Assembly (NCBI RefSeq): GCF_000007985.2
Contig: NC_002939.5
Coordinates: 2,580,001-2,612,000 of the forward strand
Origin: Geobacter sulfurreducens PCA
Lineage (GTDB): Bacteria > Desulfobacterota > Desulfuromonadia > Geobacterales > Geobacteraceae
DNA: 32,000 bases
Reading direction: 5' to 3'
The translations under genes were made by a program, and so were the position numbers. Under the pieces are notes generated by a model. It was not told the DNA's origin. It worked only from the letters and a program-made list of their open reading frames with translations, and did no database searches. This document shows, piece after piece, positions 18,075 through 28,798 of the stretch; position 1 is the stretch's first letter, and every line of letters begins with the position of its first letter.

Positions 18075-18869
18075 TCAATTTCCGATCGCTTCGCGCAGCG
18101 CGGAAACGAAGGTTGCGACCTCACGCCCGAGCTCGGCGGCCGTGAAACGCTCGAACAATTTTACAATGGCGCTCCCCACGACCACGCCGTCGGCCGAGGC
18201 GGCCACCTGGGCAGCCTGGTCAGGCGTCGAGATGCCGAAGCCGACCACGACCGGCACGGTGATCGCCTCGCGAATGGCGGCCACGTTGGAGGAAACGGAC
18301 GCCTCCACGCCGCTCCGCGCGCCGGTCACGCCGGTCACCGACACATAGTAGACGAACCCGCGGGCCTGCCGCGCCACTTTCCGGATGCGCCCTTCGTCGG
18401 AGGTGGGGGTGAGAAGGAAGATAACATCGAGCCCGTGGCGGTCGGCACATGCCTTGAACTCGGCCGCCTCCTCCGGGGGAAGGTCAACCAGGAGCACGCC
18501 GTCGACCCCCGCGGCCGAGGCATCCGCCGCAAAGCGCTCAAGGCCGTGGATCAGAATCGGATTGTAGTAGCCCATGAGCACGATGGGCACCTGGCAGCGG
18601 GTACGGACCCGGCGCACCATGTCGAGGATCTTCGGCAGGGTCGTCCCCGCAGCAAGGGCCCGCTCGGAAGAAAGCTGGATGGTGGGGCCGTCGGCCATTG
18701 GATCCGAAAAGGGAACGCCAAGTTCCACGATGTCGGCGCCGCTTTCAGCCAGAAGCGGAATCAGCGCTTCCGTGGCGGCCAGGTCCGGGTCACCGGCGGT
18801 GATGAAGGTAACGAGGGCCTTGCGGCTGTTGTGCTTCAATTCGGCAAATGTGCCGGCAATTCTGCTCAT
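18075..18869 (-). CDS. trpA: Tryptophan synthase alpha chain
   Basis: The motifs [37 protein letters not shown] and GFGISTP are classical TrpA signatures. Confidence 0.93.
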
Positions 18870-22786: not shown

Positions 22787-23977
22787 CTAAAAACGTACCC
22801 CCATGGCATCGGCCACGGTATGAATATCCTTGTCCCCCCGGCCCGAAAGACAGACCACGATGGTCTGCTCCTTCGGCAGCGTCGGTGCCAGCTTCACCAC
22901 GTGGGCGATGGCGTGGGACGACTCCAGGGCCGGCATGATCCCCTCCTCGCGGGTCAGGAGCGTGAAGGCGTCCAGGGCTTCCTCATCCGTGACCGACACG
23001 TACTCGGCCCGGCCCGCATCCTTGAGCCAGGCATGCTCCGGGCCGACCCCGGGGTAGTCAAGTCCGGCGGATACGGAGTGGGCATTGGCGATCTGGCCGA
23101 ACTCGTCCTGGAGTAGATAGGTCTTGTTGCCGTGGAGGACCCCGACGCTCCCGGCACACAGGGGCGCCGCGTGGGCGCCGGAGGCGATGCCGTGGCCCGC
23201 CGCCTCCACCCCCACCATCCGCACTTCCCGGTCATCGAGGAAGGGGTAGAAGAGCCCCAGGGCGTTGCTGCCGCCGCCGACGCAGGCCACCAGCACATCC
23301 GGCAGCCGCCCCTCGATCTTCCTGTGCTGGGCCTTGGCCTCACGGCCGATGACCGTCTGGAAGTCGCGCACCATGGCCGGATAGGGGTGGGGCCCCGCCA
23401 CGGTGCCGATCACGTAGAAGGTGTTGTGGATGTAGGTCACCCAGTTGCGCAGGGCCTCGTTCATGGCGTCCTTGAGGGTGGCGGTCCCGGCGGTCACCGG
23501 CGTGACCGTGGCCCCCAGGAGCTTCATCCGGAAGACGTTCAGAGCCTGGCGCCGGATATCCTCCTCTCCCATGAAGACTTCGCACTCCATGCCGAAAAGG
23601 GCCGCGATGGTGGCGGTGGCCACCCCGTGCTGCCCCGCGCCGGTCTCCGCAATGACCCGCTTCTTCCCCATCCGCTTGGCCAGAAGCCCCTGGCCGATGG
23701 TGTTGTTCACCTTGTGGGCTCCGGTGTGGTTCAGGTCCTCGCGCTTGAGGTAAATCTTCGCGCCCCCGAGCTTTTGCGTGAGCTTTTCGGCGAAATAGAG
23801 CGGATTGGGCCGCCCCACGTACTGGCGGAGGTAGTAGTCGAACTCCTCCTTGAACTCGCGGTCGTGCCGGTAGTGGTTGTAGGCCTGCTCCAGCTCCAAC
23901 AGGGCCGGCATGAGGGTTTCCGGCACGTAGCGGCCGCCGAACTGGCCGAAATGGCCCTGTTTGTCGGGTAATTTCAT
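22787..23977 (-). CDS. trpB: Tryptophan synthase beta chain (canonical TrpB1 type)
   Basis: [33 protein letters not shown] (PLP lysine), [12 protein letters not shown] and GGGSNALG motifs. I chose the ATG at 23975-23977 (MKLPDKQ) with GGAGGA upstream. The track start at 24073 adds 32 unsupported residues. Confidence 0.95.
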
Positions 23978-24069
23978 ATATCCTCCAGTGTTTGTATTCG
24001 TGTATTGGTCACGGTGGCTGATACCCAGAAACCGAGGCCGACCATTCTCGCACATCAGGGCAAGCCCCA

Positions 24070-24498
24070 TCAAGGGGCAGTGATCACCGTAAACCGGTCG
24101 TCAAGGATATCCGCCAGGAGCGGCCGCACATCCTGCCACGCCAGACCGCCACCGCCGCAGCCGGGACGGGGGACAATGACGCGGGTCCACCCTTCCCGGT
24201 CGGCAAGCGCCCGCAGCTCCTCGGCGGAGCGCCGGATGAGGCGCAGGTCCGGATTTGCCCAAGGGCTTTCCTCCACGGGAAAGCTGACAAGGCCCTCGCC
24301 GATGACGTGGACATGGTTTCCCCCTTCGGACAGCACTGCACCGAGCCGGGCCGGCAGATCAGGGAACCGCTCCCGGGCCTGCCGGGCGCAGCCGCGCCCC
24401 AGAACGGCCTCCCCCTTCTTTGTCAGGTGGCCGTTGGTGGTGATGCAGATGATTGCGGTACCGAGGTGGTCCCAGATGTTGCCGGGTGTTTCGTTCAT
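24070..24498 (-). CDS. Small macro-domain-like protein (putative ADP-ribose binding/hydrolase fold), 142 aa
   Basis: The pattern [31 protein letters not shown]...FPVEESPW...[22 protein letters not shown] resembles short phage/bacterial macro domains (TNG..G.AVMG.G.A ... P..G.G.GGL.W). The composition is host-like (45/60 G+C in line 24121). There is no obvious SD. The call rests on motif memory only. Confidence 0.55.
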
Positions 24499-24700
24499 TG
24501 GGGGTGCCTGTGCTGCGATAATGATATGTGGTCAGTATCGGGTGAAATTGGTCTTTGTAGTCCCGCTCATTTCTTTCACAAGGCTGATGACTTCAGATTT
24601 TTCGGTTTAACGCTGCTGGGGGATTGGCCGTAATTTGATGCAAGCCCATAGTGTTTTATCCAAAATGGGCCCAGAATATATCAAACGGCTAACGGACCAG

Positions 24701-24735
24701 CCTGAACAAGCGGAGCGAACCACCGTTTGTTCAGG
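24701..24735 (-). terminator. Hairpin downstream of the ATPase gene (possible weak terminator)
   Basis: CCTGAACAA (24701-24709) and TTGTTCAGG (24727-24735) form a 9-bp perfect stem with a 17-nt loop, 19 nt after the ATPase stop. A CGGA/TCCG extension with a 4-nt bulge is possible. There is no clear U-tract, so terminator function is uncertain. Confidence 0.35.
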
Positions 24736-24753
24736 TCCGCGTTGAAGGACTGA

Positions 24754-26328
24754 TTAGAGCCTCTTGGCATAAAACGGGGAAAGTTCAAGGATTGCACGTC
24801 TTATTGATCGGAAATCAGTATACGGAACATCCACGAAGCCTGATTTACCCTCTACGTCTACCTCAAACAGCCCTTGTGGCGCCCGAGATGTGTTAATCAA
24901 ATCGACGTAGCAACCATAGTCAAGTGCGTAAACGTTAAAACGCCGCCCCGGAATATCTTGAGCTGAAACACCTTGCCGAATGATGTGAAGAACACGCGCA
25001 TCGTAAAGAAAATCAACCAAATCGTCTTTGACCTCTGAGCCGAGAAGAAAAGCTCTTGCCTGCCGATGTTGAATAACTTCATCAACAATCCAATTCAACA
25101 GATCTTGCGCAAGTGGTTTAGTGCTAACGGCTTGCTGTTTTGCCCTAGTGTACCACGTTCTAGCAGCGGCTCGTACATCGGGAACTGATATGGCGTGGTC
25201 AAGCGCCTTCTGTGCGGCCACACCAATGATATTGATAGCATCCCGAGGAACACCTTCTGCGGATCGGACAAACTCCTCGAATGCTGGTCGTTGCGTGAAC
25301 AAGTCGTTGATAAATTCAGAAGCAGATTCTTTTACTTCCATCTCTTTGGTTGCTGAAACAAGCGCTTTGACATGCCGATGTAAAAGCTCCCGAAAGAATT
25401 GTTTCGCTAAGTCTGGGTTGTTGTCAAAGACAAGGAATTCGTCTAAATTGATACTCGCAGCTGCATCAGCCCCAATCTCAATACCAATATGCCCCACTGC
25501 CTCATCCGGAATCCGAAATCGGCAACGTTGCTCTATCGCCGCAATCTTAACTGTTACGCCGCGTACTGGAAGTACCGTGCGACGAAGCAGATCGGCCAAG
25601 TACGGCTGAAGATCGAGAGGAATTTCACTCCATTCGTCGAAGACAATCCATAGCTGAGACTGCGGCAGAGCAGTTACAAGTTTCTCAAACTCACGACCAA
25701 CTGCACCAAAGCGAACTCGCAAACATTCCGTACCTTCCCTCTTCGTTCGCCGTTCTTCCGCAGCTTGATTCTTATTCTCTATCGTGAAATCCAATGAACT
25801 TTGAAGCCCATTCGCTGATGCACCTATATTACCCTTAATGCCGTCCGCCGATGTGCTAGTTGCCGATTTTGATTCCTGGACTTCTACCGTCCCCTCGACT
25901 ACGACATTCGTAGCAGCATCAATAAAGTTGTCGAGCAAAGGTCCGAGTGCGGACAGGTCATACTCCTCAGCTTTTTCAAGTCCCTCTGTTAATATGCGGT
26001 CATGTATTGCGCACAGCGTATCAACTAGAAGTCGTGTCGCTCGCTCAGGGAGAGTTAGCCGCGGATCTGAGTAGATTCCGCCGGTTGACCCAATAGTGCG
26101 CATGTCAAGCTGAATAGCAATAACGCCATCTCTCTGGACCTCATTTGCCAAGTATCCAAGAACATGAGTTTTCCCTGTGCCTCGTCTGCCGAAAAGTATT
26201 TGGTTGTCGGGGTTCGAAAGGAGTGTAAAGAGCGGCCCAACATCAACAAAGGAGTTGATGATGTGTTGTTGGTTGTAGGTTTCGGCACGCTTGGCTAGCC
26301 TGAGCAAGATCGTATTGATTGGGCGCAT
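24754..26328 (-). CDS. ORC/Cdc6-like AAA+ ATPase with a C-terminal winged-helix-like region (524 aa). Orphan, function unknown.
   Basis: - Walker A: GRRGTGKT, nt 26167-26190.
- Walker B: LWIVFDEW, nt 25630-25653.
- Sensor-2-like: EGVPRDAINIIGVAA, compare Cdc6 GD.R.AI.LL.
- C-terminal segment: LVDFLYDARVLHIIRQGVSAQDIPGRRFNVYALDYGCYVDL, wHTH-like.
- Start: AGGAGG lies 8 nt from the second ATG (26326-26328) but only 2 nt from the first (26332-26334), so MRPIN is the likely start.
- Codon usage is AT-rich, unlike the neighbouring genes. Confidence 0.8.
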   Translation of the reverse strand: MRPINTILLRLAKRAETYNQQHIINSFVDVGPLFTLLSNPDNQILFGRRGTGKTHVLGYLANEVQRDGVIAIQLDMRTIGSTGGIYSDPRLTLPERATRLLVDTLCAIHDRILTEGLEKAEEYDLSALGPLLDNFIDAATNVVVEGTVEVQESKSATSTSADGIKGNIGASANGLQSSLDFTIENKNQAAEERRTKREGTECLRVRFGAVGREFEKLVTALPQSQLWIVFDEWSEIPLDLQPYLADLLRRTVLPVRGVTVKIAAIEQRCRFRIPDEAVGHIGIEIGADAAASINLDEFLVFDNNPDLAKQFFRELLHRHVKALVSATKEMEVKESASEFINDLFTQRPAFEEFVRSAEGVPRDAINIIGVAAQKALDHAISVPDVRAAARTWYTRAKQQAVSTKPLAQDLLNWIVDEVIQHRQARAFLLGSEVKDDLVDFLYDARVLHIIRQGVSAQDIPGRRFNVYALDYGCYVDLINTSRAPQGLFEVDVEGKSGFVDVPYTDFRSIRRAILELSPFYAKRL

Positions 26329-26623
26329 GCACATCTCCTCCTTAATTCTGGCACTCTAACGTTCAAAGTAACCGGCCTGTGCGGCTTTCGCACAAGTCCG
26401 ATTGGCTGCCGATTTATGCCCTACCGTCGCCTTTATTGGATAAATTGGGGGACACACCAGTTTCCCCGGGCCGAACGCACCGACGGCGTTACCTTGGGTG
26501 ACCGCGTCAGCTTGAATCCGAACCCGATATTCCGCCCGTCTTGCCGGATCAACAGAGTCCAGCTCCGCGGCGGCATGCACACCTGCATGTGCGCGTCATC
26601 GCGTCGGGCACAGATTCGGCATG

Positions 26624-26660
26624 CCATGAAAATTCGGAATGACAAATCTGATTTTCATGG
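26624..26660. promoter_or_regulatory. Perfect 10-bp AT-rich inverted repeat with a 17-nt spacer, upstream of the ATPase gene (candidate operator or RNA hairpin)
   Basis: CCATGAAAAT (26624-26633), tcggaatgacaaatctg, ATTTTCATGG (26651-26660). On the minus strand a possible promoter, TTGTAT-17 nt-TACCAT, ends inside the left arm. A near-direct repeat, GATTCGGCATG / AATTCGGAATG, overlaps the element. Confidence 0.45.
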
Positions 26661-26682
26661 TACCCAGCGAACAGTGATCATA

Positions 26683-26710
26683 CAAGAAAAGGGGATGGAA
26701 ATTCTCCCCT
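26683..26710 (-). terminator. Intrinsic terminator after trpF, closing the trpEGDC-B2-F transcription unit (also terminator-like on the plus strand)
   Basis: The minus strand reads AGGGGA-gaatttcca-TCCCCT followed by TTTCTTG. On the plus strand the alternative pairing AAAGGGG...CCCCTTT is followed by GTTGTTTTT. It lies about 120 nt downstream of the trpF stop. Confidence 0.55.
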
Positions 26711-26770
26711 CCCCTTTGTTGTTTTTATAAAAGTTCCCACTGCTCACCCCCCTGCTCGCGGTGCTCGCTT

Positions 26771-26791
26771 CCCCCCTACAGGGTAGGGGGG
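26771..26791. repeat. GC-rich perfect hairpin/palindrome just downstream of trpF
   Basis: CCCCCCTAC-agg-GTAGGGGGG is a 9-bp stem with a 3-nt loop, 36 nt after the trpF stop. No U-tract on either strand. Confidence 0.5.
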
Positions 26792-26826
26792 ACTGAGAGG
26801 GGTACTTCCATGGTCTGCCTCCGGTC

Positions 26827-27438
26827 TCACCACCCCTTGGCCCGCCGGATGAACTCCCGCACCCTGGCTGCGTCCTTCCGGCCGGGCGCGCTTTCCACGC
26901 CGCCCGAGACGTCCACGGCATAGGGCTTCACCGTTTCCACCGCTTCCCGCACGTTGTCGGGGGTGAGTCCCCCGGCGAGGATGAGCGGGCCGAACGCCTT
27001 TGCCGCAGCTGCGATGTCCCAGTTGAAGGTAAGGCCGGTGCCGCCGTAGGCCTTGGGGGAGTAGGCGTCCAGCAGGTGGGCCGCCACGCGGTAGTGCCGG
27101 ATCGGGTCGAGGCTGCTGATGTCCTTCACCCTGAAGGCCTTGATCACCCGGCGCTCCACGGCGTCGCAGAACTCGGGCGGCTCGTCGCCGTGGAGCTGGA
27201 CCAGATCGAGGCGGCAGCGGGTGGCCGTGTCGTTGACGAATGCCGGGGGACGGTTCACGAAAAGCCCCACGGTCTGGATAAACGGCGGGAGCCCGGCGAT
27301 GATGCCGGCGGCCTGTTCGGGCGTCACGTGGCGGGGCGATTCGTCGTGAAAGACGAAGCCGAGGGCGTCGGCCCCGGCCTCCACCGCCACGAGGGCATCC
27401 TCAAGGGATGTTATGCCGCAGATCTTGACGCGGACCAT
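26827..27438 (-). CDS. trpF: Phosphoribosylanthranilate isomerase
   Basis: MVRVKICGITSLEDALVAVEAGADALGFVF, VQLHGDE and the C-terminal AGGL..NV and VDVSSGVE-like (VDVSGGVESAPGRKD) motifs are typical of TrpF. The start lies 4 nt after the trpB2 stop. Confidence 0.9.
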   Translation of the reverse strand: MVRVKICGITSLEDALVAVEAGADALGFVFHDESPRHVTPEQAAGIIAGLPPFIQTVGLFVNRPPAFVNDTATRCRLDLVQLHGDEPPEFCDAVERRVIKAFRVKDISSLDPIRHYRVAAHLLDAYSPKAYGGTGLTFNWDIAAAAKAFGPLILAGGLTPDNVREAVETVKPYAVDVSGGVESAPGRKDAARVREFIRRAKGW

Positions 27439-27442
27439 CCGT

Positions 27443-28798
27443 TCACAGTTCCACCTTGGGCAGTTTGGCCAGGGACTCCCGGATCATCTCCTCGGGGTAT
27501 TCGACGTCTTCCAGGCCGCCGGAGAGGTAGGCGTCGTAGGCCACCATGTCCAGCTGGCCGTGGCCCGAGAGGCAGAAGAGAATGGTCTTTTCCTTCCCCT
27601 CCTCCTTGGCGATGACTGCTTCGTCAATGGCGGCCCGCACCGCGTGGGACGATTCGGGGGCCGGCACGATCCCCTCGTGCCGGGCAAAGAGGTGGGCTGC
27701 CTCGAAACAGGCGGTCTGGCGGTACGACTTGGCCTCGATGAGGCCGGCATGGTGGAGTTGCGACACCAGGGGCGACTCGCCGTGGTAGCGCAGCCCGCCG
27801 GCGTGGATACCGGGCGGCATGAAGTCGTGCCCCAGGGTGTACATCATGGCGATGGGGGCCATCTTGGCGGTGTCGCCGTAGTCGAAGGCGTAGATCCCCT
27901 TGGTCAGGGTCGGGCACGAGGCGGGTTCCACGGCCAGACAGCGGACGTTCTTGCCGGCGGCCCGGTCGGCCAGGAACGGGAAGGCCGTGCCGGCGAAGTT
28001 GGAGCCGCCGCCGCAGCAGGCGATGACCACGTCGGGGTAGTCGCCGGCCAGGGCCAGCTGTTCCCTGGCCTCCTGGCCGATGATGGTCTGGTGGAGGCAG
28101 ACGTGGTTCAGAACGCTGCCCAGGGCATAGTTGGTGTCGGCGCGGGAGGCGGCATCCTCAACCGCCTCGGAGATGGCGATGCCGAGGCTGCCGTTGCTGT
28201 CCGGATCGTGGGCCAGGATGGAGCGCCCGGCGTTGGTGAACTCGGACGGCGACGGGATCACGTTGGCCCCCCAGAGCTGCATCATGCTTTTGCGGTACGG
28301 CTTCTGGGTGCACGACACCTTGACCATGTAGACCGTGCACTCCAGGCCGAACATGGAGCAGGCCAGGGCCAGGGAACTCCCCCACTGCCCGGCGCCGGTC
28401 TCGGTGGCCAGCCGCCGGATGCCCGCCTGCTTGTTGTAGTACGCCTGGGGGATGGCGGAGTTGGGCTTGTGTGAGCCGGCCGGGGACACCCCTTCGTATT
28501 TGTAGTAGATCTTCGCCGGGGTGCCGAGGGCCTGCTCCAGCCGGTGGGCACGGTAGAGGGGAGACGGCCGCCAGAGGCGGTAGATCTCCCGCACCTCTTC
28601 CGGGATCGGAATCCACCGTTCGCCCGAAATCTCCTGCTCGATGATGGCCATGGGGAAGATGGGGAGAAGGTCGTCGGGGGTCACCGGCTGAAGGGTGCGG
28701 GGGTTGATGACCGGCGCCAGGGGGCCGGGCATGTCGGGGATGATGTTGTACCAGTGGGTCGGGATGCGGCTTTCGTCCAGCACTATTTTAGTTTGCAT
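27443..28798 (-). CDS. trpB2: TrpB2-type (long, 451 aa) tryptophan synthase beta-like PLP enzyme
   Basis: [13 protein letters not shown]...[39 protein letters not shown]...[12 protein letters not shown]...[10 protein letters not shown]. The N-terminal extension and the SHKPN lysine motif distinguish TrpB2 from TrpB1. AGGAGA SD upstream of the ATG at 28796-28798. Confidence 0.9.

Follow-up and report, generated by a model that had tools for sequence, protein, structure and literature searches.

DS-41 (the 'AAA2' of DefensePredictor, WP_033812887.1) is a single Escherichia coli gene of 502 aa that cuts the plating of several phages, and a raw table appears to show a reduction of about 3.6 log for Bas63 (PMC13092281). 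NCBI gives its homologues the name 'Sll1717 family', and PF24389 is present in six of those listed. Among ATPases of the ORC/Cdc6 clade, BrxD of the BREX system is described as standing alone without extra domains (bioRxiv 10.1101/2025.10.09.681413). Here we describe a 524-aa ORC/Cdc6-like AAA+ ATPase encoded on the minus strand, at positions 24754-26328, of a 32,000-nt stretch of the Geobacter sulfurreducens PCA genome (NC_002939.5, positions 2,580,001 to 2,612,000; the window). Our preferred reading, to which we give a rough probability of 0.55, is that this ATPase is a horizontally acquired, self-contained single-gene immune factor directed against phages or mobile elements, within the ORC-CDC6-like / Sll1717 superfamily.

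The reading frame proved to be real. The protein is 100% identical to a G. sulfurreducens hypothetical protein deposited as AAR35750.1 (strain PCA / ATCC 51573 according to its UniRef name), as KVP06_11920 and as ADI85131.1 from a second deposited genome, which we take to be that of strain KN400. A second in-frame ATG at 26334 leaves a spacer of only 2 nt to the Shine-Dalgarno sequence, and the aligned N-termini of all homologues read M-R/L-x-x-N. Because the Shine-Dalgarno spacing fits the ATG that opens MRPIN and the homologues begin at the same position, we consider the MRPIN start to be correct. A script confirmed the motif positions and located the S/T/G/A/N-rich stretch quoted in the first-pass annotation at residues 148-198 and VLHII...DYG at residues 446-472, so that the reading frame, its numbering and the residues of Walker A, Walker B and sensor 2 are all as they had been given in the first-pass annotation, which was made from the bare letters of the window. 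The separation of about 170 residues between the two Walker motifs that it had pointed out was also borne out (178 residues from K53 to D231). In an alignment of 27 diverse homologues with 52-80% identity to the query, G47-T54, W227, D231, E232, W233 and G359-D363 were invariant.

We compared the protein with the family that contains DS-41. The query matched NF047389 ('P-loop ATPase, Sll1717 family') over residues 20-392 with 34.3 bits (E 1.4e-8), below the cut-off of 75, and seven further family members scored 31-47 bits, again all below cut-off; the E-values of these eight proteins ranged from 1e-7 to 2e-12. DS-41 itself gave 97.6 bits on this model and 414 bits on NF053860 (DS41_1 anti-phage, cut-off 370), on which the query reached 28.2 bits over residues 39-200 only; the query family as a whole matched NF053860 more weakly than NF047389. 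The query has the Sll1717-type layout, with K53, D231 and R362 in place, and the printed partial sequence of DS-41 reads GQRGAGKS at about 52-59, VLIDKLDE at about 249-256 and SPRELIKL at about 365. The earlier statement that the protein resembles no named defence ATPase architecture therefore had to be withdrawn, the same layout being present in the Sll1717 family including the anti-phage protein DS-41 (PMC13092281). When BLASTP and hhalign were run against DS-41 and a 30-sequence DS-41 profile, only the P-loop and sensor 2 aligned, and hhalign against the DS-41 clade recovered 14 columns at the P-loop (probability 23%) and 27 columns at sensor 2 (44%). Because these cross-searches recovered nothing beyond the two motifs, we do not call the query a DS-41 homologue in the strict sense, and its classification as a strict homologue or orthologue was rejected on the failure of the direct profile and hidden Markov model (HMM) searches. 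We conclude that the query family is best regarded as a sister family of the family of DS-41 within one superfamily.

The query also passed the Pfam model PF24389 'ORC-CDC6-like' with 45 bits against a cut-off of 27 (E 8.4e-12), in an alignment as short as residues 15-68 against model positions 6-58 of 571. As only the N-terminal 55 or so residues align, this model represents a different subfamily. UniRef names some members 'ORC-CDC6 family AAA ATPase', and the word 'undescribed' in the first-pass annotation consequently does not apply to a family that both Pfam and UniRef know. The family is not categorically new, since databases already recognise it and a sister family has a validated member. 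The clade itself is uncharacterised, is missed by PADLOC v2 and is discussed in no paper that we found. PADLOC v2 and PHROGs gave no meaningful match for the ATPase, as had been predicted for PADLOC. Literature searches on PF24389, Sll1717 and GSU2376-2378 returned no paper on the ATPase family, and the literature searched assigns PF24389 no function; a 2020 eLife paper on conflict systems and a 2026 Nature paper on STAND proteins do not treat it, and neither the RefSeq accessions of five family members nor the word 'Sll1717' was found in the DefensePredictor supplements.

Natural fusions occur within the family. Fifteen of the best 150 representatives exceeded 600 aa; twelve of them were retrieved and ten extension segments were scanned. 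P0492 carries a C-terminal Shedu nuclease domain (Pfam SduA_C, 58 bits against 27; PADLOC SduA, 102 bits, E 9e-30), and P0385 carries a true Sll1717 ATPase at its N-terminus (NF047389, 160 bits against a cut-off of 75), to which the N-terminal part of the truncated P0445 was assigned by sequence resemblance. The attachment of a defence nuclease and of a DS-41-type ATPase to the same module is the strongest comparative argument for a role in a conflict system. C-terminal FHA domains were found in P0394, P0397 and P0413 (22-40 bits, cut-off 20.7) and, by eye, in P0401, and P0467 has a sub-threshold C-terminal segment resembling GreA/B-C. The four FHA-bearing relatives are Actinobacteria-like and GC-rich, and the most variable segment of the protein is Ser/Thr-rich, a combination that hints at phosphorylation-dependent control. 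The C-terminal extensions of P0392, P0399 and P0428 matched no family on scanning. A conserved C-terminal extension of about 140 aa (…PLIFVGLVIRQ…ISRxLR…WL…) is common to P0392, P0399 and P0408, the last of which was grouped with the other two by sequence resemblance; it had no Pfam match in P0392 and P0399, and we take it to be an undescribed domain on the ATPase module.

The family is large and scattered. A word-indexed search returned more than 3,120 clusters at 90% identity, of which the best 120 were all about 520-540 aa long with PF24389, and an exhaustive profile search of 1.84 billion representatives returned 1,954 clusters, defined at 50% identity, at E <= 1e-3 (722 at E <= 1e-30). 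At least 440 species-representative genomes encode a relative. The best 80 loci among these, with 43-80% identity to the query, were used for the comparison of neighbourhoods and come from at least 12 phyla, including Pseudomonadota, Bacteroidota, Acidobacteriota, Actinomycetota, Bacillota, Planctomycetota, Verrucomicrobiota, Chloroflexota, Spirochaetota, Cyanobacteriota and Myxococcota. Pseudomonas aeruginosa, Xanthomonas, Neisseria meningitidis and Burkholderia glumae have members. This sporadic distribution across phyla implies horizontal transfer. The family was absent from 50,697 phage genomes and was present on 23 of 72,556 plasmids, which represent two lineages.

We then considered the long spacer between the Walker motifs, which the first-pass annotation had described as a disordered-looking insert. 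That description fits residues 148-202 or so, where the sequence is hypervariable and model confidence is low (predicted local distance difference test score, pLDDT, of 36-44 over about 147-202), and does not fit residues 75-147, the structured part of the spacer, whose conserved helices were modelled with good confidence. Entropy in the hypervariable segment was about 3.0 bits compared with 0.2-1.3 in most other ten-residue blocks, and residues 151-198 or so are the clearest exception to a conservation that runs through the whole protein. The segment is rich in Ser (18%), Glu (11%) and Thr (9.5%) and nearly devoid of aromatic residues and Pro, and across 121 sequences its length stays within the narrow range of 47-53 aa. 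When the closest homologue (87% identity) was compared, the ratio of non-synonymous to synonymous substitution rates (dN/dS) was 0.24 in the segment and 0.06 elsewhere, the segment thus evolving about four times faster than the rest of the protein; the comparisons with two further close homologues (L092 and L094) were saturated at synonymous sites, and L001 was left out. The test showed no positive selection in the segment at this value of 0.24. The invariant catalytic motifs together with a dN/dS of 0.06 show that the ATPase is functional, and indicate from sequence conservation an enzyme that is active and under selection.

The genomic setting was examined in the window and in related Geobacter loci (L083-L088). 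On the minus strand the gene order upstream is trpE, trpG, trpD, trpC, a trpB-like PALP gene, trpF and the ATPase gene, followed downstream by a macro-domain gene, trpB, SLT, LEA_2, MCP, trpA, accD and folC. The G+C (GC) content of the ATPase gene is about 47% (42-53% per 200-bp window) compared with 64-70% in the flanking genes. BLASTN against other Geobacter loci delimited a low-GC cassette of 1,952 bp that is specific to G. sulfurreducens and holds the ATPase gene alone; beyond its two ends the DNA can be aligned with G. hydrogenophilus and other Geobacter loci. In the Geobacter trp cluster, the slot that separates trpF from the macro gene is an integration hotspot: it is empty and about 280 bp long in one Geobacter sp. 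(L084), contains three small open reading frames (ORFs) without assigned function in G. hydrogenophilus (L083), a single 244-aa ORF without assigned function in L086 and a 215-aa ORF in another Geobacter locus. In L085 a Fic-like/MNT/HepT toxin-antitoxin cassette lies on the far side of the macro gene, between it and trpB. No empty site was found within G. sulfurreducens, every contig with an identical trpF also carrying the ATPase gene, and the empty-site comparison therefore comes from other Geobacter species. A terminator-like hairpin after trpF is kept in all four loci compared; its conservation places the hotspot between two transcription units rather than within one. No Rfam family matched across 24000-27000, the hairpin directly after the ATPase stop codon was not statistically unusual (z = -0.88), and promoter and terminator scans around the ATPase gene stayed at background level.

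Several observations were made on the surroundings of the cassette. The flank between the cassette and the hairpin, about 220 bp with 85% conservation to G. hydrogenophilus, encodes a short ORF only, and its counterpart ORF in G. hydrogenophilus weakly matches the C-terminus of DUF4143 and that of the PADLOC candidate PDC-S01; because of this match the flank is probably the relic of an earlier AAA_14-DUF4143 ATPase cargo at the hotspot. Between the trpF stop and the hairpin lies a 114-bp insert specific to G. sulfurreducens with the palindrome CCCCCCTACCCTGTAGGGGGG, which may be an element resembling a repetitive extragenic palindrome (REP) or a miniature inverted-repeat transposable element (MITE). 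The macro gene encodes 142 aa ('ADP-ribose-binding'), is DarG-like (PADLOC E 6e-9; phrog_335 E 3e-18), has host GC content and stands beside trpB across the Geobacteraceae with or without the ATPase gene. It is an odd member of the tryptophan cluster, lying between trpF and trpB throughout the family with its stop just upstream of trpB. We considered it as a hidden partner of the DarT/DarG type and rejected this, as it is a native Geobacteraceae gene that does not adjoin the homologues elsewhere. The cluster contains two PALP genes of the tryptophan-synthase-beta type, a 451-aa trpB2-like gene between trpC and trpF and the canonical trpB, and trpA is parted from trpB by the SLT, LEA_2 and MCP genes.

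The solitary organisation of the gene holds across the family. ORF calling and BLASTP clustering over five genes on either side showed no neighbour family recurring in more than four of the 80 loci, in agreement with the original observation that there is no partner gene. The accompanying claim that no effector, recombinase or replication partner is adjacent held in that none is conserved; the DarG-like gene immediately downstream had gone unmentioned. The 123 immediate neighbours at the 80 loci were heterogeneous. Three integrases, three IS110 transposases and one Y2 transposase were among them, as were a few restriction-modification or defence genes: methyltransferases of types I and II, a restriction enzyme of type III, MvaI/BcnI and a DinG. 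Among the closest homologues, L091 stands beside an AIPR gene, L094 beside a RES-domain gene and an integrase fragment, and L092 amid small mobile-element-like ORFs. On the B. glumae conjugative plasmid bglu_4p (L089; positions 79556-93040 of the record) the homologue is flanked on one side by a Gabija-like AAA-ATPase/UvrD pair and on the other by a gamma-mobile-trio (GMT) module with GmtX, a VPA1269-family gene and GmtY, and appears to be cargo of a GMT island; such islands are reported to be rich in defence cargo (bioRxiv 10.1101/2023.03.28.534373). On an Acetobacter plasmid, IS5, an integrase and a gene with a TIR domain occur close to the homologue. No conserved non-coding flanks, terminal repeats or attC-like sites were found among the closest homologues (74-87% identity), and a carrier of the integron-cassette or MITE-like type is unsupported for this reason.

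These neighbourhoods bear on the idea that the ATPase serves a mobile element rather than its host, as an addiction or toxin-like ATPase, a maintenance or partition factor, or cargo for anti-defence or competition between elements. Integrases, IS110 and IS5 transposases, a GMT island and toxin-antitoxin-type genes do adjoin several copies, HepT/MNT toxin-antitoxin modules occur near the hotspot, and a partnerless single-gene cassette would suit such a gene. We nevertheless think this a poor prospect. The family has no conserved small antitoxin-like partner, is missing from sequenced phages and occurs in two plasmid lineages only among 72,556 records; its flanks are without conserved repeats or recombination sites, and most copies are chromosomal, far from recognisable element backbones.

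We also considered a non-immune regulatory or housekeeping-accessory ATPase, for example a DNA-binding regulator or a nucleoid or stress factor that was spread horizontally and domesticated. The gene seems to be fixed in G. sulfurreducens, being identical in AAR35750.1, ADI85131.1 and on 121 contigs, in a neighbourhood that is purely core genome; many homologues adjoin housekeeping genes, purifying selection is strong, and fusions to FHA and GreA-C-like segments are also typical of signalling and transcription proteins. However, the family is sporadic and occurs in far fewer than 1% of species representatives, and identities of 43-55% across phyla imply that transfer was recent; the gene has atypical GC content and occupies a hotspot with interchangeable cargo; one relative is fused to a Shedu nuclease domain, and the sole characterised relative is an anti-phage protein. 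We therefore regard a domesticated regulator as unlikely.

Structural comparison supported an ORC/Cdc6-like ATPase, as had been proposed. An AlphaFold2 model (mean pLDDT 70.6) contained an AAA+ core, a helical insert after strand 2 (residues 76-140), Walker B on strand 226-231 and a lid domain. Foldseek against the PDB placed the archaeal AAA+ proteins SSO1545 (2fna) and PAB2304 (2qen) and archaeal Orc1/Cdc6 (2qby, 2v1u, 1fnn) at the top, with RADAR RdrA, RuvBL, ORC4, TnsC and RFC ranked lower; the matches had E-values of 1e-5 to 1e-3 and template-modelling (TM) scores of 0.25-0.38 when normalised by the query and up to 0.53 when normalised by the target. The whole model against 2qby, 2v1u and 1fnn gave E 1e-5 to 1e-4 and TM 0.3-0.44. 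An ORC/Cdc6-like AAA+ fold is thus a reasonable but loose assignment for the model. When the PDB was searched by sequence, the single protein and a profile alike gave nothing useful, the one match being 8bns at the P-loop (E 1.1). The C-terminal winged helix that had been proposed has a topology compatible with the model and found no significant fold match: the C-terminal 147 residues modelled alone (pLDDT 77.7) had no significant match in the PDB (best E 0.22), the weak matches including several winged-helix proteins. A winged helix-turn-helix is a plausible reading of this modelled region. The C-terminal tail beyond it is almost invariant in sequence, yet the model has low confidence over residues 471-505; the tail is possibly an oligomerisation or ligand-contact element.

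The fold and the plausible winged-helix-like C-terminus are also what a replication initiator of the Orc1/Cdc6 type, relic or active, in an integrated element would have, and the first-pass annotation had suggested a relic initiator. This was contradicted on several grounds and we consider it very improbable. TIGR02928 (orc1/cdc6) was matched at the P-loop only, with 14.4 bits against a cut-off of 181; 50,697 phage genomes contained no homologue, and plasmids almost none; the 1.95-kb cassette holds nothing else; there are no origin-like repeats, conserved non-coding flanks or replication or recombination partners; and strong purifying selection across the family speaks against a relic. A helper ATPase for transposition or DNA loading, of the TniB/TnsC/IstB/DnaC type, has the faintest claim of all. 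Weak matches to IstB, DnaI, DnaC-like proteins and Hda, and TnsC among the Foldseek matches, are all that recommend it, but the sequence matches are confined to about 30 residues at the P-loop and fall well short of the cut-offs (IstB 14 bits against 200, DnaI 12 against 228), no conserved transposase adjoins the gene in the 80 loci, and terminal inverted repeats are absent. The distribution of the family outside phages and nearly all plasmids and the strong purifying selection contradict a helper as well.

Table 1. Features of the ATPase gene, its protein and the surrounding locus (window coordinates)
Feature	Position	Strand	Residues	Remarks
ATPase coding sequence	24754..26328	(-)	1-524	stop codon 24754-24756
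Shine-Dalgarno AAGGAGG	26337..26343	(-)		8 nt 5' of ATG at 26328; read from sequence
Walker A / P-loop GRRGTGKT	26167..26190	(-)	47-54	family-invariant
Conserved, mostly helical insert after strand beta2	25888..26106	(-)	75-147	DMRTIGSTGGIYSD...ERATRLLVDTL...; alignment, model, entropy
Hypervariable Ser/Glu/Thr-rich segment	25735..25887	(-)	148-198	alignment, entropy, model, dN/dS
Walker B LWIVFDEW	25630..25653	(-)	226-233	D231 and E232 invariant
Sensor 2 GVPRDAINII	25225..25254	(-)	359-368	R362 invariant, begins lid-domain helix
C-terminal winged-helix-like domain (putative)	24919..25122	(-)	~403-470	model: helix, strand, helix, long beta-hairpin
Conserved C-terminal tail	24757..24918	(-)	471-524	DYGCYVDLINT ... 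VPxTDxRSIRRAIL; alignment, entropy, model
Low-GC single-gene cassette, 1,952 bp	24513..26464	(.)		G. sulfurreducens-specific; BLASTN against other Geobacter loci
Hotspot slot between trpF and macro gene	24499..26826
Hotspot flank outside cassette	26465..26717	(-)		~220 bp common with G. hydrogenophilus plus hairpin after trpF
Probable AAA_14-DUF4143 relic	26465..26682
Terminator-like hairpin after trpF	26683..26717
Insert, possibly REP- or MITE-like	26718..26831			114 bp
Macro gene	24070..24498	(-)
trpF	26827..27438	(-)
trpB2-like PALP gene	27443..28798	(-)
trpB, canonical	22787..24073	(-)
trpA	18075..18869

Taken together, a role in defence is favoured because of the remote homology to Sll1717 and DS-41, the fusions, the defence-type neighbours and a hotspot with toxin-antitoxin cargo. 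The solitary, sporadic and horizontally transferred character of the gene, its invariant catalytic motifs and the presence of the defence ATPase RdrA among the Foldseek matches count in favour too. The conflict or defence role proposed at the outset is in this way favoured indirectly, through fusions, hotspot context and remote homology to DS-41. A number of points weigh on the other side. Support for defence is comparative, and the experiments cover DS-41 and not the query family. The link to DS-41 is at superfamily level only: both NCBIfam scores are far below their cut-offs, and hmmsearch between DS-41 and the query family gave about 3 bits in both directions. The fusions are rare (15 of 150 above 600 aa), and the Shedu fusion was seen only once. 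Immediate neighbours are often housekeeping genes (YchF, tRNA synthetases, ribonucleotide reductase, Pol A, luciferase-like oxidoreductases), with defence genes a minority in a plain tally, and the other genes of the 32-kb window belong to core metabolism, with no further defence or mobile gene among them. The stand-alone form has no effector activity that we can name, and PADLOC v2 has no model for the family. The winged-helix fold match is non-significant and DNA binding by the C-terminal domain is putative only, and a dN/dS of 0.24, being below 1, fits relaxed constraint in the hypervariable segment as well as it fits an arms race.

The analysis establishes the membership of the family, the solitary organisation, the horizontal acquisition into a variable hotspot, the fusions and the intact catalytic motifs; the defence function, its trigger and its effector step are what we infer from these comparisons, and a mechanism may be outlined as follows. 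The idle ATPase would be a monomer or small oligomer, and a cue from an invader would induce ATP-dependent oligomerisation. The cue might be nucleic acid bound at the C-terminal winged-helix-like domain and tail, a phage protein touching the exposed hypervariable loop, or both. The predicted machinery comprises K53, D231/E232, the sensor-2 residue R362 and the candidate arginine fingers R268/R272. The solitary organisation of the gene implies either that a single chain combines sensor and effector or that a host factor acts as the effector. As the stand-alone version lacks an enzymatic effector domain, the complex of ATPase and DNA would, once assembled, serve as the effector and occlude or remodel DNA during replication; otherwise a host factor would be engaged in trans. 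In relatives the same module is joined to a Shedu (SduA_C) nuclease, to FHA domains that read phosphopeptides or, in tandem, to a true Sll1717 ATPase.

A more specific version, which we hold to be doubtful, is an effector-less immune system, complete in one polypeptide, in which the AAA+ protein polymerises on DNA by means of its winged-helix-like domain and tail and arrests replication or packaging, the Ser/Thr-rich loop being a surface that phage proteins touch or modify. The loop would then act as a 'tripwire' for phosphorylation or proteolysis, which would explain the FHA phospho-threonine readers on actinobacterial relatives. If this were true, defence would be achieved by ATP-driven nucleoprotein occlusion instead of a nuclease, NADase or membrane effector, and the protein would open a way into the mechanism of the Sll1717/DS-41 superfamily as a whole.

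The single-gene immune factor that we favour would be of interest for several reasons. Few components of bacterial immunity are as poorly understood as single-gene ATPases that lack a recognisable effector domain. The family is a large sister group of DS-41 in most bacterial phyla, and if its role is defence, hundreds of species carry a member that current defence annotation overlooks. Its natural fusions to a Shedu nuclease, FHA domains and a tandem Sll1717 ATPase offer hypotheses on what the module senses or controls. Furthermore, the Geobacter locus documents a small integration hotspot between the two halves of a tryptophan gene cluster, useful for studying the movement of solitary defence genes outside classical defence islands.

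Finally, the ATPase was compared with the known systems that it most resembles. Archaeal Orc1/Cdc6, SSO1545 and PAB2304 have, like the query, an AAA+ core, a lid and a helical insert after strand 2 (Foldseek E about 1e-5, target-normalised TM 0.41-0.53), at a sequence identity of 12-14%, and their C-terminal helical or winged-helix region may have a counterpart in the putative winged helix of the query. Unlike archaeal Orc1/Cdc6, the query has about 100 extra residues between Walker A and Walker B including the hypervariable loop, has a conserved C-terminal tail, and is bacterial, solitary, horizontally mobile and without a link to a replication origin. RADAR RdrA and BREX BrxC/BrxD are likewise AAA+ ATPases of the ORC/Cdc6 clade, theirs being used in phage defence; they always act with partners (RdrB for RdrA; the BREX methyltransferase, PglZ and BrxHI for BrxC/BrxD), in contrast to the query, which has no conserved partner. 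The BrxC_BrxD Pfam model (PF10923) gave 11.5 bits against a cut-off of 22.2, and no BREX genes were present in the window or conserved in the 80 loci. STAND/Avs (AVAST) proteins are tripartite, with an effector at the N-terminus, a central NTPase and a C-terminal sensor of repeats such as TPR or WD40, and differ from the query, which lacks an effector or repeat domain and ends about 150 residues after the lid domain.

Shedu (SduA) proteins combine variable N-terminal domains with a DUF4263 / SduA_C nuclease domain of the PD-(D/E)xK type, which was not found in the window protein, so that the latter is not Shedu; in P0492, however, the ATPase and winged-helix-like module replaces the Shedu N-terminal domain and is followed by the SduA_C nuclease domain, which suggests that in a defence based on a nuclease the module can take over sensing or regulation. 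DS-41 differs from the query in that their C-terminal domains do not align and that the anti-phage assay data belong to DS-41 alone. The two are alike in being encoded by a single gene of about 500 aa, without a partner and sporadic across phyla, with Walker A near residue 50, Walker B about 180-195 residues later and a (S/V)PR(E/D) sensor 2 near residues 360-370.

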